64,000 nt of DNA from Candidatus Porifericomitales bacterium (GTDB lineage: Bacteria > Pseudomonadota > Gammaproteobacteria > CBDEFV01), in contig CBDEFV010000007.1 of assembly GCA_965237735.1 (NCBI GenBank), positions 143,305 to 207,304 of the forward strand, read 5' to 3'. Under the pieces are notes generated by a model. The model ran no database searches. It was given only the letters and a program-made list of their open reading frames with translations, and was not told the origin of the DNA. This document shows, piece after piece, positions 3,783-56,930 of the stretch. The translations under genes and the position numbers were made by a program. How positions within the stretch are numbered: the stretch's first letter is position 1; each line of letters opens with the position of its first letter.

Positions 3783-3801
3783 GTTGCGACTGAGTTTTAT
3801 A

Positions 3802-7763: not shown

Positions 7764-7970
7764 CGACTCTGGGTTGCGGTCGGAGTTTATCATGATGAAA
7801 AATTACAGCGGGCCAGGCTCAAGCAGACTCCCTGGTACTCTGCTTTGGCCCCGGCTGAGCGCGGCAGGCCATGGCAGGCCGACGATCCTGCAACCCCGCC
7901 TTTTCTCGTGCAATTACGTCTCCCCCAAAGTGAAAAGCAGTGAAGAGAACCTGGGACGGGTGCTGTCCGC
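7764..7970 (+). promoter_or_regulatory. Conserved array leader
   Basis: ggttgcggtcggagtttatcatgatgaaaa ... cctgcaaccccgccttttctcgtgcaattacgtctcccccaaagtgaaaagcagtgaagag. Confidence 0.5.
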
Positions 7971-9089: not shown

Positions 9090-9102
9090 GTCGTCTGCCG
9101 AC

Positions 9103-10281: not shown

Positions 10282-10296
10282 GGGAATGAAGTTTGC

Positions 10297-40277: not shown

Positions 40278-40301
40278 CCACGGATCTGAGGATTCACTTG
40301 A

Positions 40302-41024
40302 GTGAGTGACCAGCAAAGACATCGCTATGCGGTGACATACTATAATCGTGGGCTCGCCTACTTCAAAAAAGGCGACTTTGACAGTGCCTGTAAAGATTTT
40401 GAAAAAGTGATCGGTTTAGACCCTAACAACACCACTTCCTCTTTGGCGCGCCAGGGTCTTGAGATAATCGAGGCTTTTCAGAATGTACTTGGCCCTCGGA
40501 CGATTGAAGTTACATTTGGCCAAAGGGAGAATAAATATTTGCAGAGAAAAGCACTTTTGCAGAAACAGTATAATATGGCCTTGTGGGTAATTGGCTTTAT
40601 TGTCTTTGCGGTTATCCTCGTCGCTGCGTGTGTTGCTATAAAAATTCTTTCTGTAGATCTTACTTATGAGAAGTATCTCATAGTTGCCTCGGCAGCTTTT
40701 CTCTCACTCCCTTGGCTATGCTTGCCTTTATTTCTATGGTTGAAAAGCTTGAGCAGGGAAATACGCATTACGCAAGTATGTGTAGAAGATTACTTTCGCA
40801 AGCGGATACTGCTTACCCATGCCTTGTTACATCCATTTGGTTCGCTGGCACGAACTGAGTTGATTCAACAAACACATGCCCATTTTTCAGAGAAAAGCGC
40901 GGCTGAGTTCATAGCACAGATGGATGCTAAGACAAAAACGTCCGATCTGCACCCCATTGTTAGCCTTTTGTTAGATGAGAGGAGAAAAGCCAGCAATAAG
41001 AAACTACAGAGCGAAGAATCTTAA
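40302..41024 (+). CDS. TPR-domain membrane protein
   Basis: One N-terminal TPR unit (YAVTYYNRGLAYFKKGDFDSACKDFEKVIGLDPNN) then two hydrophobic helices (LWVIGFIVFAVILVAACVAI; AFLSLPWLCLPLFLWL). Confidence 0.6.
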   Translation: MSDQQRHRYAVTYYNRGLAYFKKGDFDSACKDFEKVIGLDPNNTTSSLARQGLEIIEAFQNVLGPRTIEVTFGQRENKYLQRKALLQKQYNMALWVIGFIVFAVILVAACVAIKILSVDLTYEKYLIVASAAFLSLPWLCLPLFLWLKSLSREIRITQVCVEDYFRKRILLTHALLHPFGSLARTELIQQTHAHFSEKSAAEFIAQMDAKTKTSDLHPIVSLLLDERRKASNKKLQSEES

Positions 41025-41239: not shown

Positions 41240-41368
41240 ATGGCAAATCTAAACAAGGCCCTGTCTGTCAGCCGACTTGGAAAGGGAGTTGTAAAGGAAG
41301 CAGTAAAGGAATCCGCCGCCCGTGAGGCCGGCCCGGAGTACCTGAAAACGACAAAACAAATGGTTTGA
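41240..41368 (+). CDS. Small ORF (42 aa) coupled to the PLD-SNF2 gene
   Basis: MANLNKALSVSRLGKGVVKEAVKESAAREAGPEYLKTTKQMV. Strong Shine-Dalgarno (caggagattccaacATG). Its TGA stop overlaps the ATG of the downstream gene (TGATG). Too short for the ORF track. Confidence 0.4.
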   Translation: MANLNKALSVSRLGKGVVKEAVKESAAREAGPEYLKTTKQMV

Positions 41369-44300
41369 TGGCAAAAACACCCATGCTTCCCTCAGGCATT
41401 CGAGATAACCGCGACCGAGGCTCAGCCGGCGAGCACCTCGCCGGCCTGCTGGAGGCAAAGTCCCATTTATCGATCGTCTCGGCCTATTTCACGATTCATG
41501 CATACGGCGAGCTGAAGGAGGAGCTGGAGCAGATTGACAACCTGCACTTTCTCTTCGGAGAGCCGAGCTTTCTCGGCTCCCTGGGCAGGGAACAGAGAGA
41601 GTCCAGGGAATTCAGCCTGACCGAGCAGGGGCTCAAGCTGGTCAATCAGCTTCGCCAGAGCAGGCTCGCCAAGGACTGTGCCGGCTGGATCAGGCGAAAG
41701 GTTAAAATTCGCTCTGTGCGGGAAAAGTTCCTGCACGGAAAGATGTATCACATCAAAAATGGCGAAGACAGCCACGCCCTGCTCGGCAGTTCCAATTTCA
41801 CCGCGGCGGGGTTGGGTCTCAATGAGGGGGGCAATGTAGAACTGAATCTGGTGGTGGACAGCAGGCGGGACCGCGACGATCTGCGTGCCTGGTTCGACGA
41901 GTGGTGGAGCGACGAAACGGCGACCGAGGACGTGAAAGACGCTGTTCTACAGGAGTTGGAAGCTCTTTATTCCGATCAGAAACCGGAGTTTATCTACTAC
42001 CTGACACTTTTTCACATCTTCAAGGATTACCTCGACAGCGAAAAGGACGCCGCATCCGACATTGAACAGATTGCACTGCCGGACACGGACGTCTGGGAAA
42101 AACTATACGCCTTCCAAAAAGACGGCGCCAAGGCGGCAATCAACAAGATCAAGCGTTTCAACGGCTGTATTCTTGCCGATAGCGTGGGGTTGGGCAAGAC
42201 GTTCACGGCCCTGGCGGTCATCAAGTACTTTGAACTCAGAAATGAGCGTGTGCTGGTGCTCTGCCCCAAGAGGCTGGAACGAAACTGGACCATCTACCGC
42301 GACAACACCGAATACAACCCATTCATAGACGATCGCTTCAGGTACGATGTTCTCTCCCATACCGATCTCTCGCGGGAGGGCGGCCACGCGGACAGAATGG
42401 ATCTCGCCACCTTGAGCTGGGGGAACTACGACCTCCTCGTCATCGATGAGTCCCACAACTTCAGAAACAACAACGCCAGCCGAGACCCGCAGCCGGGTGA
42501 GATGCAACCCGACGACAAACCAAGAAAAACGCGCTATGAAAAGCTGATCGAAGACGTCATTAAAGCGGGCATAAACACAAAAGTGCTGCTGCTTTCGGCC
42601 ACGCCGGTGAACAACAATATTTTCGACCTGCGCAACCAGATTTCACTCATTGCCGGCGGCGACGTCTTCCGGGACTCCCATGCGGATGCTGTGTTCAGGG
42701 AACACCTCGATCTTCAGTCCGTGAAAGAGACGACCAGAATAGCTCAGCAGAGATTCACCCAGTGGTCAATGAACCCCCAGAGGGACAGTCGTGATTTGTT
42801 GGAGAGCATCGGCGCTGATTTTTTCAAATTGCTGGACGGGCTGAGCATTGCCCGCTCCCGCAGGCAGATCATGCAACACTACAAGGAAGACATGGACAGG
42901 CTCGGCAAGTTCCCGGAACGCCCGCCGCCCCGCTCCATTTATTCCCCAATCGACCAAAAGGACGAGTATTTTTCGTTCGAGCAGATCAATGAAAAGATCA
43001 AGAAACTAAAGCTCGCACTATACCACCCTAGCGGGTATCTGCTTCCCGACCTGCCGACTGAGATCAGAAAAAGATACGAAGGCAGGGTGCTGGGCGGATT
43101 CACCCAGGAAAGGCGAGAGAAGATTCTCATCGGCATGATGAGGGTCAATTTCCTCAAACGGTTGGAGAGCTCGGTGCATTCATTCTGTCTTACACTGCAT
43201 CGAACCATCGGAAAGATCGATGAATTGCTACAGAAGTTCGACGAATTCGAGGAGCATCGGCAGGAAAACCAGGAGATCGATTACGACGAATTCCTGGACC
43301 CGGACAGGTTGGATGATCCTGAATTGGAAAGCAGCGAGTTTGTCGTCGGAAAAAAGCGAAAATTCCGCCTGGCCGACATCGACATCCCCAAATGGCGGAG
43401 AGCGGTTAGCGGCGATCGGGAAACCCTTGGACATCTTTGGGCCAGGACCGAGAAAATCGGGCCTGAGCGGGATGAGAAGCTGGCGCGTCTCCGCAAAGAA
43501 ATCTTCCGCAAGCTGAATCATCCGACAACCACCAACAAGTACGGGCGCGAGAACCGCAAGGTTTTGATCTTTACGGCTTTTGCCGACACCGCCGGTTATC
43601 TTTACGACAACCTGCATCAAGAAATCCAAGGCATGGGTACTCATACAGCGTTGCTTCGCGGCGATGGAGGCAACAGAACAACCATGAGCACTGGTAGGGA
43701 TTACGACAACATCCTTACCAACTTCAGTCCCATTTCAAAAGGAAAAGAAAAACCTGAAGACCCGCCGAGTGAGCAGATTGATGTGCTGATCGCTACAGAC
43801 TGCATCTCAGAGGGGCAAAACCTGCAGGACTGCGACCTGCTGATCAACTACGACATCCATTGGAACCCCGTGAAAATCATCCAGCGGTTCGGGCGCATCG
43901 ACCGCATCGGTTCTCTCAACGAGGAGGTTCATCTGATTAATTTCTGGCCAACAGAGGATCTGGAGTCATACCTTAATCTTCAGCGCCGGGTCGAAGATCG
44001 CATGGCATTGGTCGATGTGTCAGCCACGCAGACGGACAACGTGCTGCAGATCCCTGAAACCAAGGAAGGAAGCGACGGCCAAATCACGGACGTCAGTCCG
44101 CCCTACGAAGCGGAGGGCCCTGAAGTCGGGAAACTCGTCGAGAACGACCTGCGGTTTCGAGATGAGCAGCTGAAGCGCATAAAAGAAGAGATTCTCGATC
44201 TTGAAGACTTTGAAGACAACATTGCCCTGTCCGACTTTTCGCTGGATGAGTTTCGCTCTGACCTGCTGCAGTTCCTCGAAGAGCGCCGAAAAGAACTGGA

Positions 44301-44760
44301 AGCGGCCAACCCGGGGCTCTACGCGGTGGTGCCGCCCGTTGAAGACAATCCGGCCGCCAAACCCGGCGTCGTCTTCTGCCTGCGACACCTGAGGCAATCC
44401 GGGTCAGACGATGCGAAAGTCATCAACCCCCTGGGGTGTTATTACCTGATTTATGTCCTGGACGACGGCACTGTGCGTTTTGCCTTCACCCAGCCCAAAC
44501 AGGCACTGAGTTTGCTGCGCAGCGTCGCGCGGGGGCATAAGGAGGCCCTCAGGGATTTGTGCCGCCAGTTCGATGAAGCGACTCAGGACGGCCGTGATAT
44601 GGAGCGATACGACACTCTGATCAAGAAGGCGTTGAAATCAATTAAATACACTTTTGATCAGCGAAATTTGGGCAATCTTTTTTCAGGGCGCGGTGGCAAA
44701 CTCGCCAGTACAAGCCAAGTGCCCTCGGAATCTGAAGAGGAGTACGAGTTGCTCACCTAG
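41368..44760 (+). CDS. Phospholipase-D-like (HKD) nuclease domain fused to an SNF2-family helicase
   Basis: N-terminal HKD motif HGKMYHI..GSSNFTAAG. The helicase motifs are ILADSVGLGKTFTA (I), LLVIDESHNFRN (II), LLLSATPVNNN (III) and LIATDCISEGQNLQDCD..QRFGRIDRIGS (V-VI). Confidence 0.85.
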   Translation: MAKTPMLPSGIRDNRDRGSAGEHLAGLLEAKSHLSIVSAYFTIHAYGELKEELEQIDNLHFLFGEPSFLGSLGREQRESREFSLTEQGLKLVNQLRQSRLAKDCAGWIRRKVKIRSVREKFLHGKMYHIKNGEDSHALLGSSNFTAAGLGLNEGGNVELNLVVDSRRDRDDLRAWFDEWWSDETATEDVKDAVLQELEALYSDQKPEFIYYLTLFHIFKDYLDSEKDAASDIEQIALPDTDVWEKLYAFQKDGAKAAINKIKRFNGCILADSVGLGKTFTALAVIKYFELRNERVLVLCPKRLERNWTIYRDNTEYNPFIDDRFRYDVLSHTDLSREGGHADRMDLATLSWGNYDLLVIDESHNFRNNNASRDPQPGEMQPDDKPRKTRYEKLIEDVIKAGINTKVLLLSATPVNNNIFDLRNQISLIAGGDVFRDSHADAVFREHLDLQSVKETTRIAQQRFTQWSMNPQRDSRDLLESIGADFFKLLDGLSIARSRRQIMQHYKEDMDRLGKFPERPPPRSIYSPIDQKDEYFSFEQINEKIKKLKLALYHPSGYLLPDLPTEIRKRYEGRVLGGFTQERREKILIGMMRVNFLKRLESSVHSFCLTLHRTIGKIDELLQKFDEFEEHRQENQEIDYDEFLDPDRLDDPELESSEFVVGKKRKFRLADIDIPKWRRAVSGDRETLGHLWARTEKIGPERDEKLARLRKEIFRKLNHPTTTNKYGRENRKVLIFTAFADTAGYLYDNLHQEIQGMGTHTALLRGDGGNRTTMSTGRDYDNILTNFSPISKGKEKPEDPPSEQIDVLIATDCISEGQNLQDCDLLINYDIHWNPVKIIQRFGRIDRIGSLNEEVHLINFWPTEDLESYLNLQRRVEDRMALVDVSATQTDNVLQIPETKEGSDGQITDVSPPYEAEGPEVGKLVENDLRFRDEQLKRIKEEILDLEDFEDNIALSDFSLDEFRSDLLQFLEERRKELEAANPGLYAVVPPVEDNPAAKPGVVFCLRHLRQSGSDDAKVINPLGCYYLIYVLDDGTVRFAFTQPKQALSLLRSVARGHKEALRDLCRQFDEATQDGRDMERYDTLIKKALKSIKYTFDQRNLGNLFSGRGGKLASTSQVPSESEEEYELLT

Positions 44761-44779
44761 GTTGTCATCCTTGCACCTG

Positions 44780-45157
44780 ATGCCTGACAGCCGCCGACAG
44801 GCCATTCAGGCAGCGCTTGAGGGGTTCAGCCCCGTTGAACTGCGTAGGTCCAGCCTGGCGATTCTCAATGCGCTGGGATATCCAGGCGACAGGACGCCAG
44901 GGATTTCCGATTCACCGGAGGAGTTCAAGGAATTTGCGAAAGACAAATGGCCAAACTTCAATGAAGACAAAGCGCGATTCAACGAATGGAAGCAAGCCAG
45001 CATCCTTTTTCAACTGACAGACGAAGATTTGAGCGATCGGCATGCAACCATGTTAAGTAAAAAATTCGATGCAGGAAGAATTCAGTCCTACGTTTTTTTC
45101 GCCATCGAATTGGATGGAAGCCGCTACTCCAGAACTGCTCTTTTCCGATGCCCGTGA
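44780..45157 (+). pseudogene. Probable N-terminal fragment of the PglX-like methyltransferase (frame-shifted relative to 45148..48492), or a separate small gene
   Basis: MPDSRRQAIQAALEGFSPVELRRSSLAILNALGYP..EEFKEFAKDKW resembles the extreme N-terminus of BREX PglX / DISARM DrmMI methyltransferases. It ends 9 nt after the start of the methyltransferase ORF, in a different frame. Confidence 0.4.
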
Positions 45158-48100
45158 TGGTCTTTTTCAGTTACGGCGGCAAAGTTTCCATTGCCATCAT
45201 CAACCGCCGGCGCAATCAAATTCATCAAGACAGGGATGTTCTCGGCAAAGTCACTTTGATGCAAGATATAGATGTCTTCGAGCCGCATCGAGGCCATCTA
45301 CAAATTTTGGAATCTTTTTCAGCCGATGTACTTCGCAGAGATCAGACGGTAGATAGTTTTGATTCGTTGCACGCCGCTTGGGAGAAGGCGCTTAGCGTTG
45401 AGTTGCTTAACAAGCGCTTTTATCTCGAGCTGTCCAATTGGTACTTCTGGGCATCCGGTAAGGTGGAATTCCCCGACGACATTGAAAAGGATCAAGAGAC
45501 ACGCAATGCGACCAGCTTAATTCGTTTGATCACCCGATTGATCTTCTGCTGGTTTCTTAAGGAGAAGGGGCTGATCCCGAAGGATCTGTTTGAGGAAGAA
45601 AAACTTGAAACGGTTCTGATAGATATGAAGAAAGGTGAATCATCAACCTTTTACCAGGCAATCTTGCAAAACCTGTTCTTCGCCACACTAAACCAGCGGA
45701 TGAACACCGATCAGGAGGCACACCGCAAGTTTGCCCAAGATGCGGACCTTCATACAAACAAAAAAGAGTATGGGGTCAAAAATATTTATCGATACAGAGA
45801 CCAATTCCAAGATGTTGGCAGGGCGCTTGATCTATTCAGGGACATTCCATTCCTTAATGGCGGTCTGTTTGAGTGCCTGGACCGCGAAGATGAGGAGGGA
45901 AGAGTGCAATATCTGGATGGCTTTTCGCGCAACCCCAAGAAACAGTCAAAGGTGCCCGACTATCTGTTTTTCGGGGACGAGCAGGTTGTTGATCTCAACA
46001 AGTTTTTTCAGGAAAACAATAAGAGAGGCAAAAAACAAAAAGTTCGAGGCCTGATTCATATTTTGAGCGACTATAAGTTCACCATTGTCGAGAACACGCC
46101 TATCGAACAGGAAACCGCGCTGGATCCTGAGCTCCTCGGCCTGGTATTCGAGAACCTGCTCGCCCTCTACAATCCCGAAACGAAGACGACAGCACGCAAA
46201 AAAACCGGCTCCTTCTATACCCCCCGCCCTGTAGTGGACTACATGGTCACTGAATCGCTTAAAATGCACCTCACTACAGCATTGACCGAAACAGGCATGG
46301 CTGAAAAAAGGACCCAAACCAAACTCAAGGCTCTCTTTGCCTACGCCGAGCACGGACACGGGCTCAAAGAAGCGGAAGTCGATACTCTTCTTGGTGCCAT
46401 CCATACCTGCAAAATACTCGACCCTGCTTGTGGTTCTGGTGCGTTTCCAATGGGTATGCTGCAGAGATTGGTCTTTGTCATCCAAAAGCTCGACCCGAAC
46501 AACAGTAAATGGAAGAAGCTCCAAATTGACAAGGCGAAGGAGATTCCTGACTCCTCTGCCCGTAAGGCCGCTATTGATGCCATAGAAAAAGATTTTGCCG
46601 ATAACGAGGACGGCTATGGCCGCAAACTCTACCTTATTGAGAACTGCTTATACGGTGTGGATATTCAACCGATCGCTATCCAGATATCAAAATTGCGCTT
46701 CTTTATTTCGCTGATCTGTGATCAGAAGACTAACCGCAACAATACCGAGAACCGCGGAATCCGGCCACTGCCTAATTTGGAAACTAAATTCGTCGTTGCC
46801 GACACGCTTATCAGTCTCGGGATTACCAGGCAACTCGACGTTTTGGTTGACAATGATAAAGTCAAGGAGATAGAAGAAAAACTCCAACGCGTTCGTCATG
46901 ATCACTTCACTGCCGACAAACGCGAACGTCGGCTTGAACTTCAGAGAGAAGACCGAGAACATCGCGATGACTTGGCCGAGGCACTGAAAGAAGGCGGGGC
47001 AGAGGAAATAATCAGACGCAAACTTGCCGATTGGAACCCCTACGATCCTCAGGAATCTGCCGATTTTTTCGAGCCTCGCTGGATGTTTGACAAAACTGTT
47101 AAGGATGGATTTGATGTAGTCATCGGCAACCCACCCTACATGAGAATCCAAGGTATTCGGCAAGTCTCACCAATTGCTGCTGATTACTATAAGAAGCACT
47201 ATAAGAAATCGGCAACTGGTTCCTTTGACCTTTATGTCATCTTCATGGAGCGAGGCATGAGCCTGCTTAAACCCAACGGCATACTCAATTACATCAATCC
47301 AGATAAATGGGTGAATGCAGCCTTTGGTAAGGGTATCCGAGGATATTCTGTCGAGAATAAAAGTGTGCATCGTTTGATTAGTTTCGGAGCACACAAGGTT
47401 TTCTCGGCACATACCTATTCTTCGTTGCTCTGGATGGGCAAAAAGCCAACAGATTCTATCCGCCTTGCCCGGCTTGATCCTGATGTTTCCAAATTGATTC
47501 TGATTGATGAGGAACTGGACAAACTATCAGATCAGGGTTTCACATCAATCCCATTTGATAGTCTTACAGATAGACCGTGGATTCTTATTGCTGGGGATGC
47601 TGCTGAGGCGGCGATGGACGCTATTCAGAGATCTTCCCGGACTGTTAGCGATATTTTTTCAAACATATTCCAAGGTATCGCAAGTAGCAAGGATTCTGTT
47701 TATTTTCTCAAAAGAGCCGAAGACTGCGGAAGTTTCTTCAAAGCCTATTCGGATGAACTTGACGAAGTCATCAAGATAGAAAAGTGGTTGGTAAAGCCGT
47801 TATTGTATGGCGAGCAAGTTCATCGCTATGAATGTCTTGGAACAGATAACGTTGTTGTATTTCCATATGATCTTGGGAACGATGATCTTCCGGCAACAAG
47901 ATCCCTGATGACTGCTGGAGATATTCAGACCAAGTTTCCCATGGGTTGGGAATACTTGGAGCGATGCGAGGAAGCGTTGAGGAGCCGTGAAAGTGGCCGT
48001 CTTAGCAATGACAATAATTGGTATCGCTATATCTATCCCAAGAATTTGCGATTGTTTCGGCTACCCAAGCTTCTCGCTCCCGACATCTCTTTCGGCGGAA

Positions 48101-48492
48101 ATTTTTCGATAGATGAAATTGGTAAGTTTTATACAACCACAACACTATACGGATACATCAAAAGACCTCATATTCGAGAAAGCTATAAATTCCTTCTCGC
48201 GGTGCTAAACAGTAAAGTGCTCTGGTTCTATGTGAAAAATTCAGGAAGTGTTCTGGCTAAAGGATATTATCGCTACACGCCCGGGTATTTAAAAAATTTT
48301 CCGATCCCAGAAGTATCTGATAGTAAGCAGGAGCCGTTCATTCGCTTGGTTGATCAAACCTTGCAGGCTAAGGCCGACAATGGGAATGCCGATACCAGCG
48401 AGCAGGAAGCCGAGATTGACAAGCTAGTCTATGAGCTCTACGGCCTGACTGCCGAAGAAATTACAATCATCGAAGAAAAAAGCAGGGCATGA
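45148..48492 (+). CDS. N6-adenine DNA methyltransferase, gamma class, of the PglX / DrmMI / MmeI-like family
   Basis: Helical-region signature LLNKRFYLELSNWYF and SLIRLITRLIFCWFLKEKGLIP. Motif I is ILDPACGSGAFPMG, motif IV is DVVIGNPPYM, and there is a long C-terminal target-recognition region. 1114 aa. Confidence 0.85.
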   Translation: MPVMVFFSYGGKVSIAIINRRRNQIHQDRDVLGKVTLMQDIDVFEPHRGHLQILESFSADVLRRDQTVDSFDSLHAAWEKALSVELLNKRFYLELSNWYFWASGKVEFPDDIEKDQETRNATSLIRLITRLIFCWFLKEKGLIPKDLFEEEKLETVLIDMKKGESSTFYQAILQNLFFATLNQRMNTDQEAHRKFAQDADLHTNKKEYGVKNIYRYRDQFQDVGRALDLFRDIPFLNGGLFECLDREDEEGRVQYLDGFSRNPKKQSKVPDYLFFGDEQVVDLNKFFQENNKRGKKQKVRGLIHILSDYKFTIVENTPIEQETALDPELLGLVFENLLALYNPETKTTARKKTGSFYTPRPVVDYMVTESLKMHLTTALTETGMAEKRTQTKLKALFAYAEHGHGLKEAEVDTLLGAIHTCKILDPACGSGAFPMGMLQRLVFVIQKLDPNNSKWKKLQIDKAKEIPDSSARKAAIDAIEKDFADNEDGYGRKLYLIENCLYGVDIQPIAIQISKLRFFISLICDQKTNRNNTENRGIRPLPNLETKFVVADTLISLGITRQLDVLVDNDKVKEIEEKLQRVRHDHFTADKRERRLELQREDREHRDDLAEALKEGGAEEIIRRKLADWNPYDPQESADFFEPRWMFDKTVKDGFDVVIGNPPYMRIQGIRQVSPIAADYYKKHYKKSATGSFDLYVIFMERGMSLLKPNGILNYINPDKWVNAAFGKGIRGYSVENKSVHRLISFGAHKVFSAHTYSSLLWMGKKPTDSIRLARLDPDVSKLILIDEELDKLSDQGFTSIPFDSLTDRPWILIAGDAAEAAMDAIQRSSRTVSDIFSNIFQGIASSKDSVYFLKRAEDCGSFFKAYSDELDEVIKIEKWLVKPLLYGEQVHRYECLGTDNVVVFPYDLGNDDLPATRSLMTAGDIQTKFPMGWEYLERCEEALRSRESGRLSNDNNWYRYIYPKNLRLFRLPKLLAPDISFGGNFSIDEIGKFYTTTTLYGYIKRPHIRESYKFLLAVLNSKVLWFYVKNSGSVLAKGYYRYTPGYLKNFPIPEVSDSKQEPFIRLVDQTLQAKADNGNADTSEQEAEIDKLVYELYGLTAEEITIIEEKSRA

Positions 48493-50507
48493 CCATTTCA
48501 AAGCTGACGTCCGCGGATCTTCATGCCGTGGACAGCCTGATGAAAAGTAACAGTAAGACGCTTGGCTTCCTCCCCCGAGAGGTCCTTCTCTACTTTCTTA
48601 AAAAAGAGAGTGTGTTGGGTACCAAGACTGATGATGGGCAACTCATTGGCTATCTTCTCTATGCGTCTTACCCAAACTATATCCGTATCACCCAACTTTG
48701 TGTGTCAGAAACCTTTCGAGGTCAAGACTGGGGAAAACAGCTTTTTGAGGAACTAAGAAAATCCGTTACTACTCAAAAAGACATACGGCTTCACTGCCGT
48801 AATGATTTTCCGACAAATCACATGTGGAGTCATCTGGGGTTTATTCCTCTGGGTGAAAAGCCTGGACGCTCTGCTTCCGGGCATCCTCTGACGCATTGGC
48901 ACTTTACTTTAGCCCGCGATGATCAGCTCAGTCTGTTTCAGGCAAAAGTGTCGGATGATGCCCATGATGTTGCTATCGATGCTCAAGTTTTCTTTGATTT
49001 TGACGAACCTGATAGTGCCAGGATAGCACCCTCCCAAGCGTTGTTTCACGATTTTTCGGATGATTTTCTCAGACTCTGGACAACCGATGAACTGTTTGTC
49101 GAAATTCACCGTGGAAAAGATCCAGATCGGCGCTTCCAATCACGGCAAGAAGTTCATCGGCGGCTAAGAAAGATAGAGCACAAGCGACCATTGGCTGAGC
49201 ACTTTGAGGAAGTCTTAAAGGGAATATTGCCAGTTGCTGGTAGTGAGAGCCGACTATCTGATATTCGGCATATAGCGAAGGTGGCCGCTTCTGATGTAAA
49301 GACTTTTGTTACCTGCGACAGAGCCCTTGGGGGAAAGGCCGACGATATTGCCGATAAGACAGGTGTGCGGGTGCTACAACCAACCGAACTGATTATTCGA
49401 CTTCACAAATTTTCCAAGCCAGAATCCTATAGGTCTACTCGGATCTCTGGTTCCGGTCTCATATTTTGCCGCTTGGATGCCGATAACCTCAGCCACCTTC
49501 CATACGATTCGCTACTTTATGAAGGAGAAAGGAGAGGCCCGTTCAAGGAAAAACTGAATGCTTTTCTTGCAGAGCCTGATCATTACAGATGCGAACTCCT
49601 TCAGTCCGAGGGGGAGACTGTTGCAATCCGTATTCTTACGAGCAACTCGAAAAAGACGTTGTCCATAAAATTAGCCAGAGTTGCACGTTCTGCTGCTCAA
49701 ATGCGGGAGCTCTTCGATCGGTTTTTAATAACAGACACCGTTTCTCAGGCTGTAGAAAAAAAGCTGAGTATGGTGAAGATTGAGAAAGATGCTATTTCTA
49801 CCAGAATGATGACGGGTCTTTACGAGATGGGCTTTACGGAATATAATGGCGATTTCGTGAGGTTTTGTTTTTCACAGTGCCTTGATCGTGAAGAAGCACT
49901 CGACGAGATTTCTGCCTTGCACCCTGAGTCAAAAGAAGCATATTTCAAGATGCAAGGCCCTGATCTTGAACGATGCTGCTCCCCCCTTAGCCTGAAAACA
50001 TCTGATCAGCCGTGCTTTTTAATGCCGATTCGTCCTGGTTATGCAGAGAGCCTTGTTGACCCAGAGCGATCAGCCGGCAGTCTCTTGGGAGGAGTGCCCA
50101 GTGTGTTGCTGAGTTGGTATAACATATATTATCGAAAGAAAAACCGACATAAAATGTTTGGGGCACCCGGGCGGATTCTGTGGTATGTAACTGCCCCCGA
50201 AAAGTGTCTTGTGGCTATTTCACATCTTGATGCTGTTGAGGTGGGTGTTCCGAAAGATCTATTCAGGAAGTTCAAAAAGCACGGCATTCTGGAGTGGGAA
50301 GAGCTTTATGAGATGTGTAATAAGGATGTTTCGAATGAGATTATGGCATTGAAATTCTCCCACACGTTTCCTTTTCGAAAACGCATTTCATTGGATAAAT
50401 TGCGGTGTATTTTCAAGAAGGACCTAGTTGGTTTTTCGGTTCAGGCCCCACTGAGGGTGCCGATAGAAACATTTCAAAAAGTATTCCAACACGGGTACCT
50501 GGAGTAG
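48489..50507 (+). CDS. GNAT-family N-acetyltransferase domain fused to a ~500-aa domain of unknown function
   Basis: N-terminal GNAT fold with motif A (ITQLCVSETFRGQDWGKQLFEEL). The remainder has no recognisable motif. Its start overlaps the methyltransferase stop (ATGA). Confidence 0.6.
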   Translation: MTISKLTSADLHAVDSLMKSNSKTLGFLPREVLLYFLKKESVLGTKTDDGQLIGYLLYASYPNYIRITQLCVSETFRGQDWGKQLFEELRKSVTTQKDIRLHCRNDFPTNHMWSHLGFIPLGEKPGRSASGHPLTHWHFTLARDDQLSLFQAKVSDDAHDVAIDAQVFFDFDEPDSARIAPSQALFHDFSDDFLRLWTTDELFVEIHRGKDPDRRFQSRQEVHRRLRKIEHKRPLAEHFEEVLKGILPVAGSESRLSDIRHIAKVAASDVKTFVTCDRALGGKADDIADKTGVRVLQPTELIIRLHKFSKPESYRSTRISGSGLIFCRLDADNLSHLPYDSLLYEGERRGPFKEKLNAFLAEPDHYRCELLQSEGETVAIRILTSNSKKTLSIKLARVARSAAQMRELFDRFLITDTVSQAVEKKLSMVKIEKDAISTRMMTGLYEMGFTEYNGDFVRFCFSQCLDREEALDEISALHPESKEAYFKMQGPDLERCCSPLSLKTSDQPCFLMPIRPGYAESLVDPERSAGSLLGGVPSVLLSWYNIYYRKKNRHKMFGAPGRILWYVTAPEKCLVAISHLDAVEVGVPKDLFRKFKKHGILEWEELYEMCNKDVSNEIMALKFSHTFPFRKRISLDKLRCIFKKDLVGFSVQAPLRVPIETFQKVFQHGYLE

Positions 50508-50521
50508 TTGTGAAAACGATA

Positions 50522-50980
50522 ATGATCCCTTTGCTGCTCTCTCTGAAACCTCGCTATGCGCAACTCGTTTTCAATGGCAAAAAAACTGCTGAACTGCGAC
50601 GGCAAATTGCTTCCCGCATGGAAAACCGCGACGTGTTTATTTACGTTTCCGGCCCGGTCAAGCAGCTTCAAGGCCGCTTTCGTGTTGAGAAGGTATGGAG
50701 CGGATCACCAGGGGAGGTTTGGAAGCATGTGTCCAAGCTTGCAGGAGTCAATAAGGAAGATTTTGATGCTTATTATGCTGGACGAGAGATTGCCCATGCT
50801 CTGGAAATAACTAATATTTTGAAGTACGAAAAACCCGCCAACCTAAGAGCGCTGAAGAAACAATTTCCGGATTTTGTTGTTCCGCAGTCTTGGAGATACG
50901 TTAAACCTGAAGAACACCGGTCTTTCAAAAGCAAGAAATTAATCCCACAAATCTGGTACAGAGAGTCGAGAGCCTCATAA
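50522..50980 (+). CDS. ASCH (PUA-like) domain protein
   Basis: MIPLLLSLKPRYAQLVFNGKKTAELRRQ...DVFIYVSGPVKQLQGRFRVEKVW fits the ASCH beta-barrel pattern (compare YqfB-like proteins). Begins 15 nt after the GNAT-fusion stop. Confidence 0.55.
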   Translation: MIPLLLSLKPRYAQLVFNGKKTAELRRQIASRMENRDVFIYVSGPVKQLQGRFRVEKVWSGSPGEVWKHVSKLAGVNKEDFDAYYAGREIAHALEITNILKYEKPANLRALKKQFPDFVVPQSWRYVKPEEHRSFKSKKLIPQIWYRESRAS

Positions 50981-51530
50981 AGGTATTCCAAATCATTCTT
51001 TGCTCCTGAATGTAAAACCTTATTCAATAGAGAACAAACACAGTCTGATGCCTGAGGTGGAACCATGATAGACATTGCCTTCGAATTTACCGGGAAATTG
51101 CAGGTATTTTCAGGAAAGCCCCCTGGTACTTCGTCTCGCTCCCCAAAGACGAGGCTCAAAGGGTATATTTTTTCCGTGAAGAAAGCCGGGGCTTTGGCTC
51201 TTTCAGGGTTCAGGCCAAAATTGGCCGCACGGAGTGGAACACATCCATTTTTCGAGATAACAAGAGGGATACGTATCTGCTGTTTATCAAGGCCGCTGTA
51301 CGCTCGGCTGAAAACATCAGGGTCGGCGATGAGGTGCGGGTTCATATTCGGTTACTGTAAATGCATGCCCCGAACAAAACACTATCGGCAAAGCACCTTC
51401 AGGCAGCCCGCTACTCGCACTACCCCGGATTTTGCCCAAAACCACTTGACTGCAGCACCGCTGTATACTATACTTAGATTTAATCAATGCAAGACCCCGT
51501 GCTCTGAAAGCATGATCGTGATCACAAAGA

Positions 51531-52931
51531 TTGCGTGAAGAATGGTGGGAGGCTTCCATTAATGGCCTCGCAAAACTCTACTTCCAGGTGCAGTTTATGA
51601 TGAAGGGTATTCCCCAGCTATCTGTTTCTAAGGAGATCAGAAGCTTTCAATCCTATGATCCAAAAGCTGTTCACTTGTTTCACTATGAAGCAAAGGGGCA
51701 AGACAAATTACCGCATGTAGTGAAGTTTTCGGGCGGGCGCTCAAGCGGCATGCTGTTGCTCATTCTTCTTGAGGCTGGAATCCTTAAAGCGGCCAGAGGC
51801 GATGTGATTGTTTTCAACAACACCTCAGCCGAGCACCCGGCAACCTATGAGTTCACGAAGAAGTTTAAGGAGATGGTGGAGAAGGACTATGAGATTCCAT
51901 TCTTCTGGATAGAATCCCAGACCTATGAAGATGCCAGAAACGGCGAATGGAATCGGCTGTTTTCGTATAGGTTGGTGCAGCCTGAGCCCTATTCAGAAAC
52001 CAACCCCGACGGTTATCACTGGCGTGGAGAGGTCTTTGAAGAATTGCTCTCAGGGAAAGGGTATGTGCCCAATCAATTCAACCGAGTGTGCACAGCCAGC
52101 CTGAAACTGGAAACAACCCGTGCTTTCCTTAAGGACTGGTTTGCAAATAAGCCTGGCATAGCGCGTTTAGGCCACTATGGAGATAAAAGCCGCCTCAACG
52201 ATGACACCCTTTATCAACGCCATCGGAGAAATCAAGGAGATATGCCAAGGGATGTTTTTCTTGAAAAAAAATCATTTGTCCGAAGCAGGCCCGTATTTCG
52301 CCCTGAGCAGTTGTTTGGTGACTTTTCCAAAGCGGCAGTTCCTTTTGAAAACAAAATACTTGAAGGACGACAACTCGGTGGCAATGCCTACTTTGGCCAA
52401 GATGGCGTTGAGTACATTTCTTTCATCGGTATCCGCTATGATGAAATGCACCGTGTTGTTAAAATCCGCGAACGAAACTCCGGCGAGACAGGAACATCTG
52501 GATACGAAGGCGAATATATTCATATGCCTCTCTCGGTCATGGGCATTACTCAAAAAAATGTTAATGATTTCTGGCGCGAGCAGCCATGGGATTTAAGACT
52601 TGACGCAGAGGATGGTTTATCGAATTGCACCTACTGCTTCCTTAAGGGTGCAAGAGGTTTGCAAAAGGTTAGATCCAAACTACAAAAGAGCCTTCCAAAG
52701 AGTTGGGTTCAAACACCTTCAGATATCGCTTGGTGGGTATCCATGGAACGGAAATATGGCCGGGATATGAAGAGAGAAAAACGCAAGCTGCGTAAAAATG
52801 GAACTGATTTTATTGGATTCTTCGGGTCGGACAACAGATTTTCGTACAAATTACTGGCGAACGACACTCATAGAGACAGGATTGTGGCCCAAAATGCCGA
52901 CAGCATGTTGCCGTGCGATTGTACTGATTAG
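51531..52931 (+). CDS. PAPS-reductase-like PP-loop ATP pyrophosphatase (DndC/SspD-like)
   Basis: PP-loop variant VVKFSGGRSSGMLLLILLEAG (compare SGGKDS in DndC/CysH). C-terminal Cys motif NCTYCFLKG. Possible alternative start at MMKGIPQ (51597). Confidence 0.6.
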   Translation: MREEWWEASINGLAKLYFQVQFMMKGIPQLSVSKEIRSFQSYDPKAVHLFHYEAKGQDKLPHVVKFSGGRSSGMLLLILLEAGILKAARGDVIVFNNTSAEHPATYEFTKKFKEMVEKDYEIPFFWIESQTYEDARNGEWNRLFSYRLVQPEPYSETNPDGYHWRGEVFEELLSGKGYVPNQFNRVCTASLKLETTRAFLKDWFANKPGIARLGHYGDKSRLNDDTLYQRHRRNQGDMPRDVFLEKKSFVRSRPVFRPEQLFGDFSKAAVPFENKILEGRQLGGNAYFGQDGVEYISFIGIRYDEMHRVVKIRERNSGETGTSGYEGEYIHMPLSVMGITQKNVNDFWREQPWDLRLDAEDGLSNCTYCFLKGARGLQKVRSKLQKSLPKSWVQTPSDIAWWVSMERKYGRDMKREKRKLRKNGTDFIGFFGSDNRFSYKLLANDTHRDRIVAQNADSMLPCDCTD

Positions 52932-53140: not shown

Positions 53141-55153
53141 ATGACATCAGATATCCGACCGGACCTTCTCTTTGGGCTTGGTGCAAGCACCGGCTTTTCT
53201 TCCTCGGGAGTCGCATCGTTCGACGATCTTCGCCCTGCTGCCGTGGTGCGGGAGCTCATACAGAATTCTCTTGATGCCGCACGCGAGGCCAAAACCAGTC
53301 CTGCTGTCGTTCGCTTCCGACTCAGGCGCATTGATCAAAAACAGATTCCCGGCATCAAGGCTTACAAAGCGGCTTTTTGTAAGGCTATTAAGCGACAGCA
53401 TGACTCAGAGACCAACACCCTTCACGGCCAGGCCCAACTCACTGTAGATCAGATAGAAACTGCTCTCAACGAAGAGCGACTGGATGTTCTCTCCATCATG
53501 GATAACGGCGGCGGGATCGATAACCGACGGATGGATGCGCTTCTCAGCGACGGCGTCAGCGCCAAGGAAGGTCAGGCTACCGGCACGTACGGGAATGGCC
53601 ACTTCACAGCCATTCCCGCATCCAACCTGCGCTATATCCTCTACGGAGGAGTTATCGCCGACGGCAGCCGAATCGGTTCTGGACACGCCATTCTTGCCTC
53701 TCACATCGGGCTGGAAGAGGAAGAACATCTCCGGGGCGCCGACGGGTTCTTCATCCGTGGCTTCCAAGCCACTTCAGACACACTCTACGAATACGCGGAT
53801 GATCAGGACATTCCAGACCTGATCAGCCAAGACTTAACAGACATCAAATCTCATTCCGGACACGGCACGACCGTCATCATCACAGCCTTCAACCATTTTC
53901 TGGAAGACCGGGGCCGGTCTCTCTGGAATATGGTGTCGGAAGCGGCCTCGGCCAACTTTTTCATTGCGATCGCAAATGATCATCTCAAAGTTATTGTCGA
54001 GGACCTTCGAGATGAGCAACACTCCGAACCCCAGACTCTGGATCGCTCCACCCTTCGAGATGTACTGACTGAACACCAAGGGAAAAAACGGTCAGCCGCT
54101 TTTCTCAGCGGCAGACGGGCCTTTGACGCTCACAGGGCATTCCAATCCGGCAAAGTACACGACGTTGAGACCGACGCAGGCGAAGTCGTCGTCCACCTTC
54201 AGGAAAAAGCTTCCGGGACCACCCATATAGACCTTTGCCGGAACGGAATGTGGATCACCGACGACAAGAGCATTCCAATCTTCCGCTACAAGTTCACGGC
54301 TCGAGCTCCATTCCATGCAGTACTCTCCCTGAACCCGGATGGGGGACGCGACCTCTACAATCTGATCCGCCTTGCGGAAGGACCGTTGCACGATTCGATC
54401 CGGCTCAAGCGCCTCCCACCGGGAAAGAAGAAATGCCTTCAAGGCGCGCTCATACAGATCCGTGACTGGATTCTTGACAACACGACGCCCATCCAATCCG
54501 ATGCCTACTCCCCGGACGACTTCTTTACGTCTGATTTCGGCGACAATGCGGGTGGTGGAAACGGCAAGTCTCGAAAAACGTATTGGGCGCGAACGCCCGT
54601 TGCTGCCAAACGGCGCCCGGCACGCAAATTGCACCCGCCTTCCCCCGGCGAGAAGGAACCGGGAACGCCTGAACCCGAGAACCGCCCCGGGCAAAGGAGA
54701 AATTCAAATGCCAACCGGGCCAGACAAAGACCGTCGCTTCCTGCGCTATTTCGGGCTGCTTCACTCTCCATCGGCGAACACCGCCGCCGTATCGTGGTTG
54801 AGTGCATTGAGGACTACACCGATACCGAACTGCGTCTCGTGGTTGATGAAGCTCTGGATGTAACCTGTGATCGCCCCAATCAGGATGACTATGCCCCAGC
54901 GACCCTCGAAAATGTCACAGTTGATGGCAAACCGGCCTCCCCCGAAAGCCTATGCACATTGGACGGCCGTGTCATCGGCATCCGTCTGGGCAACCTCAAA
55001 GCTGGATCGTCGATTGAGGTCGAAACGGACTACGCTCTTTCTGGAGACTTCCACGGTCTTCCCGACCCCTCGCTCCGTGCCGAACTCTTCAGGTCCCGAA
55101 CGAAACCAGAAGCCGATGGCCAGAACAACAACAAGGACGGCGATACGCAATGA
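53141..55153 (+). CDS. GHKL-superfamily (histidine-kinase/MutL/MORC-like) ATPase
   Basis: Bergerat-fold motifs: N-box VVRELIQNSLDAAREA, G1 box VLSIMDNGGGID, G2 TGTYGNGHF. 670 aa. Overlaps the next gene by 4 nt. Confidence 0.7.
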   Translation: MTSDIRPDLLFGLGASTGFSSSGVASFDDLRPAAVVRELIQNSLDAAREAKTSPAVVRFRLRRIDQKQIPGIKAYKAAFCKAIKRQHDSETNTLHGQAQLTVDQIETALNEERLDVLSIMDNGGGIDNRRMDALLSDGVSAKEGQATGTYGNGHFTAIPASNLRYILYGGVIADGSRIGSGHAILASHIGLEEEEHLRGADGFFIRGFQATSDTLYEYADDQDIPDLISQDLTDIKSHSGHGTTVIITAFNHFLEDRGRSLWNMVSEAASANFFIAIANDHLKVIVEDLRDEQHSEPQTLDRSTLRDVLTEHQGKKRSAAFLSGRRAFDAHRAFQSGKVHDVETDAGEVVVHLQEKASGTTHIDLCRNGMWITDDKSIPIFRYKFTARAPFHAVLSLNPDGGRDLYNLIRLAEGPLHDSIRLKRLPPGKKKCLQGALIQIRDWILDNTTPIQSDAYSPDDFFTSDFGDNAGGGNGKSRKTYWARTPVAAKRRPARKLHPPSPGEKEPGTPEPENRPGQRRNSNANRARQRPSLPALFRAASLSIGEHRRRIVVECIEDYTDTELRLVVDEALDVTCDRPNQDDYAPATLENVTVDGKPASPESLCTLDGRVIGIRLGNLKAGSSIEVETDYALSGDFHGLPDPSLRAELFRSRTKPEADGQNNNKDGDTQ

Positions 55154-56019
55154 CAAAATCCCACAGTATTGATGTAGCCGTACCGGAACCTTCCAACTTG
55201 ATCCGGTTCCAGCGCCACCCCGTACTCGAATCCGGTAATCTCTCGTTTCCCAAGGGCCAATACACGCTTGACTTCGAACCAGGCACTGATCGAACCTCCT
55301 TCTTCATCACCCATCAGGTCCACGGCGCCCCTCTGATTACCCGCTTGCTGGAGGCTGGGAAAGCCCTGTTTGCCTGTATCGTATCGTCTCCAATCTCCTC
55401 GTATCGCCAAACCCATACTTCCGACGGTGCCCGGCACGAAGTGTGCTGCCACCAAAACAATCTCGGCGAACCACCGCTCTTCACTCCGATGATCCTCTGT
55501 ACACAACCCCTTGCCATTACTCTGGACGTCGCCCGCGACGGCCTTCACAATATCTGGGAGGGTCAGCCTGTTACGTTGCAGAAAGGGTCCCGCTTGGCCT
55601 TGGGCAGCGTCATCCAGTTGGAAACGTCGAGAAAAAGCCTTCTTTCCCTGCGCGAGGACACGAAACTGAAGGACGGCCAGTTTGTCGTTAACATTGAGAC
55701 GGAGCCGTTCCTTTTTGTCGTCAATCTCAGTACTGATCTTCACCGGTACTTGCAGCATAACCGGACCGAGCACCGCAGCAATATTATGACGCACATCGTG
55801 ACCGCTTGCCTCGCTCGTCTTCAGCGGAACTTCCACGAAGACGACGATGAATCGGGCTGGAAATCCCACAGCAATCTCCGTGCATTTGCGGATCACCTTG
55901 AAGATAAGGGATTGGGCCATTGGACCGACGATGATTTCCAGCCTGAGCAGGCTGCAACAGTGCTGCACCCGCATGTTCTGCCGACCATTGAATCGGCGGA
56001 TGAAACCGAAAACACATGA
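55150..56019 (+). CDS. Hypothetical protein (289 aa) within the GHKL-DUF262 gene cluster
   Basis: Linked to both neighbours by ATGA overlaps. No recognisable motif. Confidence 0.6.
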   Translation: MTKSHSIDVAVPEPSNLIRFQRHPVLESGNLSFPKGQYTLDFEPGTDRTSFFITHQVHGAPLITRLLEAGKALFACIVSSPISSYRQTHTSDGARHEVCCHQNNLGEPPLFTPMILCTQPLAITLDVARDGLHNIWEGQPVTLQKGSRLALGSVIQLETSRKSLLSLREDTKLKDGQFVVNIETEPFLFVVNLSTDLHRYLQHNRTEHRSNIMTHIVTACLARLQRNFHEDDDESGWKSHSNLRAFADHLEDKGLGHWTDDDFQPEQAATVLHPHVLPTIESADETENT

Positions 56020-56930
56020 ACGGGTTCAAAGAACTCTCTGACATCGAATACACCCGATTGCGGCAGAACCTGCTGCGTTTGAAAGGGAGCGAAAAACAAC
56101 GGAATTTTCTCGAAGAAGCACGCAATACCGGCGCTTTCTTGAACCGCATGGAAAAGATCCCCACCGTCGGCTCCACTGAGGCTGAGCTCGCTCCATCAAA
56201 GATGACTGAAAACGAATTCAAAGAACCTCCTCCTGACACGGAGGCCGCGCTTTACAACGCATGGACGGCGCTTCCGCCCGCGACCGCCTGTCGTTCCACA
56301 TTCTGGGCCAATCTCACACTTCGTCATATCCGGCACGGGTATATCCAATCGACCTTCCTGGCTGCCAACGGTGGCAAACACCTCGGAGGTGCCGAGCACA
56401 TCGACTCGGTTCTGCAGGATTCCACGGCACAGGCCGCCGAACGTATTGACCGGTGCGTCCGCGCCATCCTGCGGCGGCTCGGCGGCCTGCCTGAGATCCG
56501 CGGCAATCGGTCTGTCTACGTGGACTGTCCACTGGCCCGGGCCTGGTGGCGTGAGCGCTGGGTTGAGCAAGCTGCCCAAGGAGACCCGAAGCTCGCTGGG
56601 AAAATACGAGCAGTTGTCCGGATCAAACAAAACTACTGGGAAAAATTCGTCGACCGGATCGTGTTCAGAAATTCCACGTTCGGTTCTGAGAATATTCGAA
56701 ATGCCTTTCTGAGATCGCTGGCACGATTTCTTCAGTCCAACCCAGACTCGCAACTGCGAGAAACCAAAGATCTTCAGCGCCTCTGTCGACGCACCACCGC
56801 ATACCAGGGGCGACAGGAACTAAGCATCCTCACTGATGAGGAACTCGACGCAATTATGGCGGACGTTATTGAGAAGACGTCGAACATCACCCAGCACAAT
56901 CCACAATCAAACAAGAGAGGCAGCACATGA
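56016..56930 (+). CDS. Hypothetical protein (304 aa) within the GHKL-DUF262 gene cluster
   Basis: Linked to both neighbours by ATGA overlaps. No recognisable motif. Confidence 0.6.
   Translation: MNGFKELSDIEYTRLRQNLLRLKGSEKQRNFLEEARNTGAFLNRMEKIPTVGSTEAELAPSKMTENEFKEPPPDTEAALYNAWTALPPATACRSTFWANLTLRHIRHGYIQSTFLAANGGKHLGGAEHIDSVLQDSTAQAAERIDRCVRAILRRLGGLPEIRGNRSVYVDCPLARAWWRERWVEQAAQGDPKLAGKIRAVVRIKQNYWEKFVDRIVFRNSTFGSENIRNAFLRSLARFLQSNPDSQLRETKDLQRLCRRTTAYQGRQELSILTDEELDAIMADVIEKTSNITQHNPQSNKRGST

Follow-up and report, generated by a model that had tools for sequence, protein, structure and literature searches.

Bell et al. 2020 (BMC Biol 18:159) described operons that encode PIN-GNAT-EVE proteins, nearly all of which also encode a second PUA-like protein, ASCH. 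These operons often lie beside type I restriction–modification (R-M) systems and beside operons that combine a SWI2/SNF2-nuclease with a methyltransferase, and an AAA_17 ATPase is often found near them. Toxin–antitoxin or defence roles were predicted in that work, none of these modules having been characterised. The internal domain of the proteins is called GNAT-like there, and an earlier description, including a proposed acetylation of DNA bases by GNAT-EVE proteins, is credited to Iyer et al.; the term 'GNAT-PIN' is absent from the paper. In the 'guilt by embedding' study of Payne et al. 2024, the candidate PDC-M11 is cassette CAS_00069 (count 293 in the table), one of 145 candidates picked for their embedding in BREX, DISARM and type I R-M systems. 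Here we analyse a two-gene locus of this kind in a stretch of 64,000 nucleotides, referred to below as the window, from Candidatus Porifericomitales bacterium (assembly GCA_965237735.1, contig CBDEFV010000007.1, positions 143,305–207,304, forward strand).

The pair comprises a large gene at 48489–50507 (plus strand, 672 residues, ATG start), whose predicted product contains an N-terminal GNAT domain (N-GNAT), a PIN-like domain, a GNAT-like domain and an ASCH-like domain, and a small gene at 50510–50980 (plus strand, 156 residues, GTG start) for an ASCH protein resembling ZmASCH of Z. mobilis. Sequence comparison gives good support for regarding the pair as a variant of the predicted '(PIN)-GNAT-EVE + ASCH' or PDC-M11 cassette with an extra N-terminal GNAT domain, and not as a new kind of system. 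The small protein matches the PADLOC model PDC-M11B at E 1.4e-33. In the large protein, PDC-M11A aligns at residues 194–317 (profile positions 39–155, E 3.5e-9) and at residues 505–639 (profile positions 324–463, E 4.7e-6), and distant plasmid-borne pairs from cyanobacteria match the same PDC-M11 models. The window pair also has the R-M adjacency for which PDC-M11 was picked, because it sits at the 3′ end of a unit made up of an HKD-SNF2 gene and an adenine methyltransferase gene. No NCBIfam model matches either protein of the pair at its cut-off.

The original prediction for this DNA, made from the letters alone, had placed a GNAT fusion protein followed by an ASCH protein at 48489–50980, inside a defence island and joined to an adenine methyltransferase gene by an ATGA overlap. 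The open reading frames (ORFs) are as it described, and Pfam GNAT and ASCH families are found above their cut-offs. The overlap, too, is there: the start of the large gene overlaps the stop of the ORF at 45148–48492 by 4 nucleotides ('gcATGAcc'). So is the island, with HKD+SNF2, type IIG-like methyltransferase, PDC-M33 and GmrSD-like neighbours. Neither gene is a chance ORF, because 1126 cluster representatives match a profile built from the large protein at E<=1e-30. The mechanical ORF of the ASCH gene spans 50405–50980, and its true start is almost certainly the GTG at 50510, because this codon lies 2 nucleotides past the upstream stop, is preceded by GGAG 5 nucleotides upstream and yields MKTIMIPLL as the first residues, which can be aligned with the MNxTTxPLL of 30 homologues.

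Domain composition of the two proteins

The large protein belongs to a broad family. More than 120 full-length homologues from database clusters share 50–57% identity over 97–100% of its length, and a profile search of 1.8 billion cluster representatives returned 3369 relatives, including those at E<=1e-30 mentioned above. The best relatives are almost all of 670–730 residues and match profile positions ~1–670 end to end, which points to a common four-domain form and not to a singleton. These relatives are annotated merely as 'GNAT family N-acetyltransferase' or 'hypothetical'. The original prediction had left the C-terminal ~500 residues unassigned; this region resolves into a PIN domain, a GNAT-like domain (on weak evidence) and an ASCH-like domain.

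N-GNAT (48489–48923, residues 1–145) is called by Pfam GNAT families, alignment, a profile search of the Protein Data Bank (PDB) and Foldseek. Within residues 39–123, Acetyltransf_7 scores 27.8 bits (gathering score 27.0), Acetyltransf_10 26.7 bits (23.6) and Acetyltransf_1 26.2 bits (20.7). The acetyl-CoA loop reads R-G-Q-D-W-G in the window copy versus R-G-Q-G-I-A in the family consensus, and its central glycine is also missing in several relatives. By sequence, the closest PDB entries are aminoglycoside acetyltransferases of the AAC(3)-I type (E 8e-6), with Ard1/Naa10 and RimI; by fold, Naa10, Ard1, RimI and serotonin N-acetyltransferase match best, the AlphaFold2 (AF2) model of this domain having a predicted local distance difference test score (pLDDT) of ~70–89. 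The best 60 sequence matches among solved structures include no GNAT toxin. A TmcA-like writer, which it had suggested, is rejected on domain content: a generic GNAT covers residues 39–123 only, the rest being PIN, GNAT-like and ASCH-like, and Pfam finds no helicase/ATPase, GNAT_acetyltr_2 or tRNA-binding domain.

The PIN-like nuclease domain (48951–49433, residues 155–315) carries the acidic tetrad D164, E201, D258 and D277. In 32 sequences, including relatives at 24–27% identity, the three aspartates are invariant and E201 is kept in at least 90%. Of 32 homologous domains, Pfam detects PIN_3 in 16 (best E 1.7e-9) and PIN in 6. This domain had been missed originally, and its presence shifts the likely chemistry of the large protein to RNA cleavage.

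The middle domain (49440–49979, residues 318–497) is probably a degenerate GNAT-like fold, a call that draws on weak evidence from its AF2 topology and a marginal PDB profile match. The model runs b1-a1-a2-b2-b3-b4-a3-b5-a4-b6-b7, the order of the GNAT fold, with block-mean pLDDT values of ~73–90 over residues 321–470. A profile of close homologues matched the GNAT protein 1yvk at E 1.2e-3. With a more diverse profile this match fell to E 0.48, and the GNAT proteins Naa30 and 1z4e also appeared near E 1, all below threshold; the diverse profile brought no improvement in the sequence-level evidence for a GNAT. The domain has no Pfam match and no visible Q/R-x-x-G-x-G/A acetyl-CoA loop, and it is the least conserved of the four (mean column identity 42% versus 58–64% for the others).

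The C-terminal domain (49980–50504, residues 498–672) is by profile comparison a paralogue of the partner ASCH protein, stripped of the lysine and glutamate of the partner's octapeptide. Hhalign joined it to the partner family with a probability of 95% (E 3.4e-8, 141 columns), four control domain pairs all scoring <=2%. Poorly modelled in the full-length AF2 run, the domain alone, with 41 diverse sequences, reached a pLDDT of 86.4 and a predicted template modelling score (pTM) of 0.82. In Foldseek, structures of ZmASCH match it best (E 4e-10, TM 0.83), followed by EVE, YTH and TRIP4-ASCH; YqfB structures match at E ~0.03–0.06. GGxxxVLLRW replaces the GxKxxExR octapeptide, and equivalents of ZmASCH Y47 and Q127 are retained. 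PUA-like reader domains, central to the original prediction, are therefore present twice, the second being the C-terminus of the large protein (hhalign, Foldseek). The full-length AF2 model has a pTM of 0.42, and the arrangement of the domains relative to one another is left uninterpreted.

Homology, octapeptide and key residues mark the partner as a ZmASCH-type protein of the GKER class. Pfam ASCH scores 27.9 bits (cut-off 21.2), and the sequence of the ZmASCH crystal structures (5GUQ/5GUS) matches at E 1e-26 with full-length homology (positions 7–136). The octapeptide, G-K-K-T-A-E-L-R, is complete. Residue Y45 never varies, and Q126 and S127 are each kept in at least 90% of the sequences; the three are the equivalents of ZmASCH Y47, Q127 and S128. 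The YqfB-type N4-acylcytidine amidohydrolase proposed in the original prediction (~103 residues, GK[T/S]R octapeptide) is rejected on size and octapeptide. PDC-M11A models also match ASCH proteins of the partner type. The partner has a further match to an NCBIfam L22/ASCH fusion model (E 1e-13), with a score that falls far short of the curated cut-off.

The first description of ZmASCH was of a Mg-dependent ribonuclease that acts specifically on single-stranded RNA; Y47, Q127 and S128 line its nucleic-acid cleft, and the Y47F variant has reduced binding and RNA cleavage. In a 2026 preprint, 19 of 19 ASCH proteins assayed, ZmASCH among them, removed N4-acetylcytidine (ac4C) from tRNA in vitro, and the GxKxxExR octapeptide was essential for deacetylase catalysis; ZmASCH was inactive on free ac4C, and in vivo it did not significantly lower tRNA ac4C. 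The PDC-M11B model also recognises ZmASCH (E 3e-29). In Z. mobilis (L082, 6825–8447) its gene lies 49 nucleotides downstream of one for a 375-residue protein. This neighbour has no Pfam or PADLOC match and, in a single-sequence hhalign comparison of low sensitivity, it shows no similarity to the large subunit. With one PDC-M11A model having 376 positions, the neighbour might be a very divergent GNAT-PUA partner. ZmASCH as part of the same operon type was considered and rejected, this comparison having given no link to the large subunit or PDC-M11A.

Pairing, neighbourhood and mobility

A scan of one genome per species gave 78 related loci. The ASCH gene lies immediately 3′ of the large gene, on the same strand and after a gap of a few to ~45 nucleotides, in 75 of them; two of the exceptions are very short contigs and the third is a locus with only a partial match to the large gene. 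The arrangement is kept in all three distant relatives (24–26% identity), which come from a Calothrix plasmid, a Nostoc plasmid and a Prevotella replicon. This co-occurrence supports a functional pair, as originally predicted; the original prediction had named a pair that does not co-occur in other genomes as a sign against it. When the 1339 neighbouring ORFs of the 78 loci were clustered, the pair alone was conserved and no other gene family was.

The commonest neighbours after the pair itself were Eco57I-like methyltransferases (15 loci) and HKD-SNF2 proteins (12 loci, upstream or downstream), each accompanying the pair in ~15–20% of loci; at least 10 related loci have both of them, and their placement with respect to the pair goes either way. 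Across 76 loci, Pfam assigns the immediate upstream gene to Eco57I in 14, Methylase_S in 4 and N6_N4_Mtase in 2, and PADLOC assigns it to type IIG methyltransferase models in 12 and to type I specificity subunits in 5, an R-M component occupying this position in ~19 of the 76. Other upstream genes are diverse and often have housekeeping functions. Immediately downstream lie type II methyltransferases (4 loci), AriA/OLD-like proteins (3), type III Res (2) and PD-T4-4 (2). Association with R-M genes is therefore frequent but not obligatory. The coupling to the methyltransferase that the original prediction read from the ATGA overlap holds for this locus but is facultative in the family, in which this type of gene is immediately upstream in 12–14 of 76 loci; obligate coupling is rejected on the clustering result.

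Where R-M genes do adjoin the pair, they are of different kinds. One locus has the pair inside a type I operon, in the order HsdM-HsdS-pair-HsdR (L047). Another has a type III-like order, Mod-pair-Res by Pfam (L022), and a further locus shares both flanking gene clusters with it (L063). The order methyltransferase-pair-HKD-SNF2 is found in L020 and L037, and the order of the window, HKD-SNF2-methyltransferase-pair, in L004, L005, L015 and L069; L007 also has both genes upstream. The spacing between pair and methyltransferase is tight in L005, L007 and L040 as well.

Relatives at 44–57% identity occur in at least nine phyla. This identity, together with the patchy distribution, argues for horizontal transfer of the cassette. 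The island that holds it in the window has a GC content of 46–50% versus 62–66% in the flanks, and the Calothrix pair resides on a mobilizable plasmid, with an Eco29kI R-M system on one side and an McrBC-like system on the other. The pair is an autonomous, horizontally mobile cassette that is often inserted in R-M operons of different kinds. Among 50,697 phage records there were no phage-borne copies, the only match being a weak one between N-GNAT and a Thermocrinis virus acetyltransferase. An AAA-type ATPase gene follows the pair in the cyanobacterial plasmid relatives (L079, 9649–12512; L081, 3125–4411), with the McrBC-like gene (5-methylcytosine restriction system component-like) next in Calothrix, an arrangement reminiscent of the AAA_17 neighbours of PIN-GNAT-EVE operons; among the loci examined it was seen only in these two, and neither the window nor the 78 close loci have one.

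The close relatives are nearly all from metagenome-assembled genomes: 13 from Poribacteria, 28 from Dehalococcoidia, 7 from Latescibacterota and 4 from Nitrospirales, with others from Binatia, Caldilineaceae and Verrucomicrobiales. These lineages are typical of marine sponge microbiomes, and identities of 44–57% across such phyla suggest exchange within one habitat.

Candidate mechanisms

Judging by its domains, its genetic neighbourhood and what has been published on the biochemistry of ZmASCH, we infer that this mobile two-gene PDC-M11-type cassette would act on RNA, as a toxin–antitoxin-like or abortive-infection back-up to restriction, and our confidence in that proposal slightly exceeds our doubt. 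In the window the cassette follows the HKD-SNF2 and adenine methyltransferase genes on one strand with tight spacing, which makes co-transcription with this R-M-like pair plausible. The two paralogous ASCH modules, the fused one without the octapeptide lysine and glutamate and the free one intact, would bind nucleic acid that is single-stranded or modified, RNA (tRNA, for instance) being the most probable target. They would control or target the effectors of the large protein: a putative PIN ribonuclease with an intact tetrad and a GNAT domain whose acetyl-CoA loop is largely conserved. Restriction would in this way have a back-up, either growth arrest of the toxin–antitoxin kind or abortive infection, which could count, for example, against phages whose modified DNA escapes restriction. 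The small ASCH protein could be a regulator, an antidote or a co-sensor.

Several observations weigh against an RNA-acting back-up of this kind. At least 60% of the related loci have no recognisable defence gene directly adjacent and have genes for gyrase, a tRNA synthetase, ThiI or sulfatases there instead. The gene order, large first and small second, and the lack of a DNA-binding antitoxin fold do not fit a classical type II toxin–antitoxin system. The GNAT loop of the window has an aspartate where most relatives have a glycine, and the best GNAT matches are protein and aminoglycoside acetyltransferases, from which the substrate of either GNAT domain cannot be inferred. The window's own PIN domain is too divergent for detection by Pfam. 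ZmASCH is not beside a recognisable PDC-M11A gene, so that such ASCH proteins can function outside the cassette. PDC-M11 itself stands as a candidate only, and in the literature searched no family member is reported to have been tested for defence, toxicity or enzymatic activity.

The main rival, which we consider unlikely, is the writer and eraser scheme of the original prediction, in which the GNAT domain would acetylate a DNA or RNA base (for example, cytosine at N4) and the ASCH protein would read or remove the mark. It could take the form of a self-marking layer beside adenine methylation, or of a DarTG-like toxin (the writer) with its antidote (the eraser). The conserved acetyl-CoA loop of N-GNAT in the family, the complete GxKxxExR of the partner, the tRNA deacetylation by ASCH proteins reported in vitro in the 2026 preprint, the strict co-occurrence of the two genes and the proposal of DNA-base acetylation by Iyer et al., as relayed by Bell et al. 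2020, all fit such a scheme. Yet the architecture in Pfam is not of the TmcA/NAT10 type, the nearest matches of the GNAT domain are enzymes that acetylate proteins or aminoglycosides, and ZmASCH acted neither on free ac4C nor, to a significant degree, in vivo. A pure form of the scheme also leaves the conserved PIN nuclease without a role, and the occurrence of the cassette with many R-M types or none argues against a marking layer dedicated to this methyltransferase. Overall, the evidence neither supports this idea nor decides against it, and the character of the GNAT domain lends it no weight. Of the original prediction as a whole, the pairing, the involvement of reader domains and the defensive setting hold, and the analogies to TmcA and YqfB do not.

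A guard resembling PrrC is distinctly unlikely in our estimation. Here, contact with the R-M complex would silence the cassette, and its PIN and GNAT activities would be released when a phage anti-restriction protein disables that complex. The position of the pair, inside or at the 3′ end of three kinds of R-M operon and always on the same strand, would suit a guard, as would the 4-nucleotide overlap with the methyltransferase gene here and the tight spacing in the three loci mentioned; PrrC is likewise embedded almost only in type I R-M. Many copies are solitary, however, most related loci having no directly adjacent R-M gene, and partners as different as type I, type III-like and HKD-SNF2 systems would demand a generic interaction surface. 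The pair has no sequence relation to PrrC or RloC.

Acetylation and RNA cleavage could also be combined in a reversible, DarTG-like switch, which strikes us as quite improbable. Acetylation by the N-terminal GNAT domain would be the toxic or immune act, directed at phage DNA or at RNA, whether aminoacyl-tRNA or the cytidines of tRNA. The free ZmASCH-type protein would serve as dedicated eraser and antidote, and the fused, catalytically stripped ASCH domain as the reader that guides the enzyme; RNA so marked would be destroyed by the PIN domain. If true, such a switch would make ASCH deacetylases immune antidotes and acetylated nucleic acid a player in bacterial immunity, and it would tie the newly reported tRNA-deacetylase activity of ASCH proteins to immunity. 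If false, the cassette would be one more RNA-targeting back-up module for restriction systems.

We give a similarly low rating to a module that serves addiction alone, stabilising the mobile island or a plasmid without contributing to phage defence. Both PIN and GNAT are often found as toxin domains, and the occurrence of the cassette on plasmids, in low-GC islands and, patchily, across phyla is what addiction would lead one to expect. However, the cassette is inserted repeatedly inside R-M operons and does not merely ride on mobile elements, the typical small DNA-binding antitoxin is missing, and two nucleic-acid-reader domains are hard to explain in this way. Least probable is an enzyme for housekeeping modification of RNA or protein (in tRNA or ribosome maintenance, for example) that is in the island by chance: ASCH and PUA domains are classically tied to the translation apparatus, the L22/ASCH fusion model does match the partner and many related loci have housekeeping neighbours, but none of these neighbours is conserved, the distribution over at least nine phyla indicates horizontal transfer, some copies are plasmid-borne and the cassette is embedded in R-M operons.

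The island and comparison with known systems

Upstream of the pair, the window encodes a fusion of an HKD (PLD) nuclease and an SNF2 helicase (41365–44760, plus strand; PADLOC C3a139 'HKD+Snf2', E 8.6e-130; Pfam PLDc_2, SNF2-rel_dom and Helicase_C) and an Eco57I/type IIG-like N6-adenine DNA methyltransferase (44780–48492, plus strand; Pfam Eco57I, E 1.3e-40, and TaqI_C; PADLOC type IIG models to E 3e-75), of which the former is the probable restriction partner of the latter. The two genes (41365–48492), the second being type IIG/DrmMI-like, form a two-gene restriction-like unit that resembles a minimal form of DISARM or type ISP systems, although DrmA and DrmB are missing and Pfam finds no DUF499. 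As assembled, the methyltransferase ORF is split by a frameshift near 45135–45150 (44780–45157 and 45148–48492). Homologues elsewhere are single ORFs of 1190–1290 residues; their residues ~8–130 map to 44795–45142 and those from ~134 map from 45133 in another frame, and a run of seven T lies nearby at ~45094–45100. Directly after the ASCH gene, a small gene at 51065–51360 has a frameshift at a run of five C (51119–51123); its repaired product of 98 residues matches Pfam DUF1905 (E 7.5e-23). We place this gene outside the cassette because none of the related loci has a DUF1905-type homologue beside the pair. Both frameshifts suggest homopolymer indel errors of long-read assembly and not pseudogenes.

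Further downstream, 51531–52931 encodes a protein of 466 residues that matches no Pfam family; its only similarities, all weak, are of the PAPS-reductase type (SspD, E 8e-8; BrxP, E 9e-6; DndC, E 2.5e-4). This protein may go together with the genes that follow, those of the PADLOC candidate PDC-M33 (53141–58756). They encode an HATPase-type protein (E 2e-32), a B component and a DUF6339 protein, the last being perhaps the third member of the three-gene cassette. PDC-M33 is a second candidate system in the same island, and a GmrSD_N/HEC-05-like gene follows it directly, with overlapping start and stop codons. In a promoter and terminator scan over 40.9–53.2 kb, counts were not above those of shuffled controls and no terminator was found after the ASCH gene; a promoter-like site, TTGACT-17-TATACT, lies at 51446–51474, before the gene for the 466-residue protein. 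Large TPR-repeat proteins flank the island (38724–41024 in the window), and 11 related loci (among them L009–L011, L015, L040, L056, L059, L061, L069 and L070) encode TPR proteins no more than 10 kb from the pair. At the far end of the window (48–12725), ~10 tandem same-strand ORFs of ~370–450 residues with 48–52% GC, two of which, when scanned, matched glycosyltransferase families GT92 and GT2_4, look like an array of paralogous glycosyltransferases that occupies a low-GC segment of its own.

The pair is of interest as a member of a large family, spread over many phyla, within a defence candidate identified by embedding. To what is already described, our analysis adds a complete domain map of the large protein, the recognition of its C-terminus as a stripped paralogue of its partner, the placing of that partner in the same family as ZmASCH, a bacterial ASCH protein with a crystal structure and published biochemistry, and an independent confirmation of nesting in three kinds of R-M operon. 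The locus would not surprise a specialist, but the sharper picture of its anatomy and the connection to ZmASCH open the family to direct tests.

The pair shares its types of toxin domain with known toxin–antitoxin systems, GNAT with TacAT, AtaRT and KacAT and PIN with VapBC. Type II GNAT toxin–antitoxin systems consist of a stand-alone toxin of ~170 residues and a small DNA-binding antitoxin encoded upstream. Here, by contrast, GNAT and PIN are fused in one protein of 672 residues with PUA-like domains, a methyltransferase gene lies upstream and the ASCH partner is encoded downstream, a combination that does not fit a system of the TacAT or AtaRT type. With PrrC of EcoprrI the cassette may share a logic, that of an RNA-targeting effector nested in an R-M operon and possibly backing up restriction. 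The analogy does not extend to sequence or domains, PrrC having an ABC ATPase-type domain, and most relatives of the window pair are not next to R-M genes. ZmASCH (ZMO0922; PDB 5GUQ, 5GUS, 5Y6B and 5Y6C) resembles the partner in sequence and octapeptide and the fused domain in fold; cleavage of single-stranded RNA and removal of ac4C from tRNA are reported for ZmASCH itself.

PDC-M11 is closer. Its B component is matched strongly, its A component over the PIN and C-terminal regions, and embedding of the R-M type is shared. The A matches are weak and partial, and the A profiles (376–501 positions) have no counterpart of N-GNAT; for these reasons, the PADLOC rules might miss this locus as PDC-M11. 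Relative to the (PIN)-GNAT-EVE operons, the window protein has an additional canonical GNAT domain (residues 1–145) before PIN, its internal GNAT-like domain appears to be degenerate, with no recognisable acetyl-CoA motif, its C-terminal domain is predicted to fold closest to ZmASCH and not to EVE, and the window has no AAA ATPase. What the two have in common is the PIN domain, a C-terminal PUA-like domain, a separate adjacent ASCH gene and neighbours of the R-M and SNF2 kinds.

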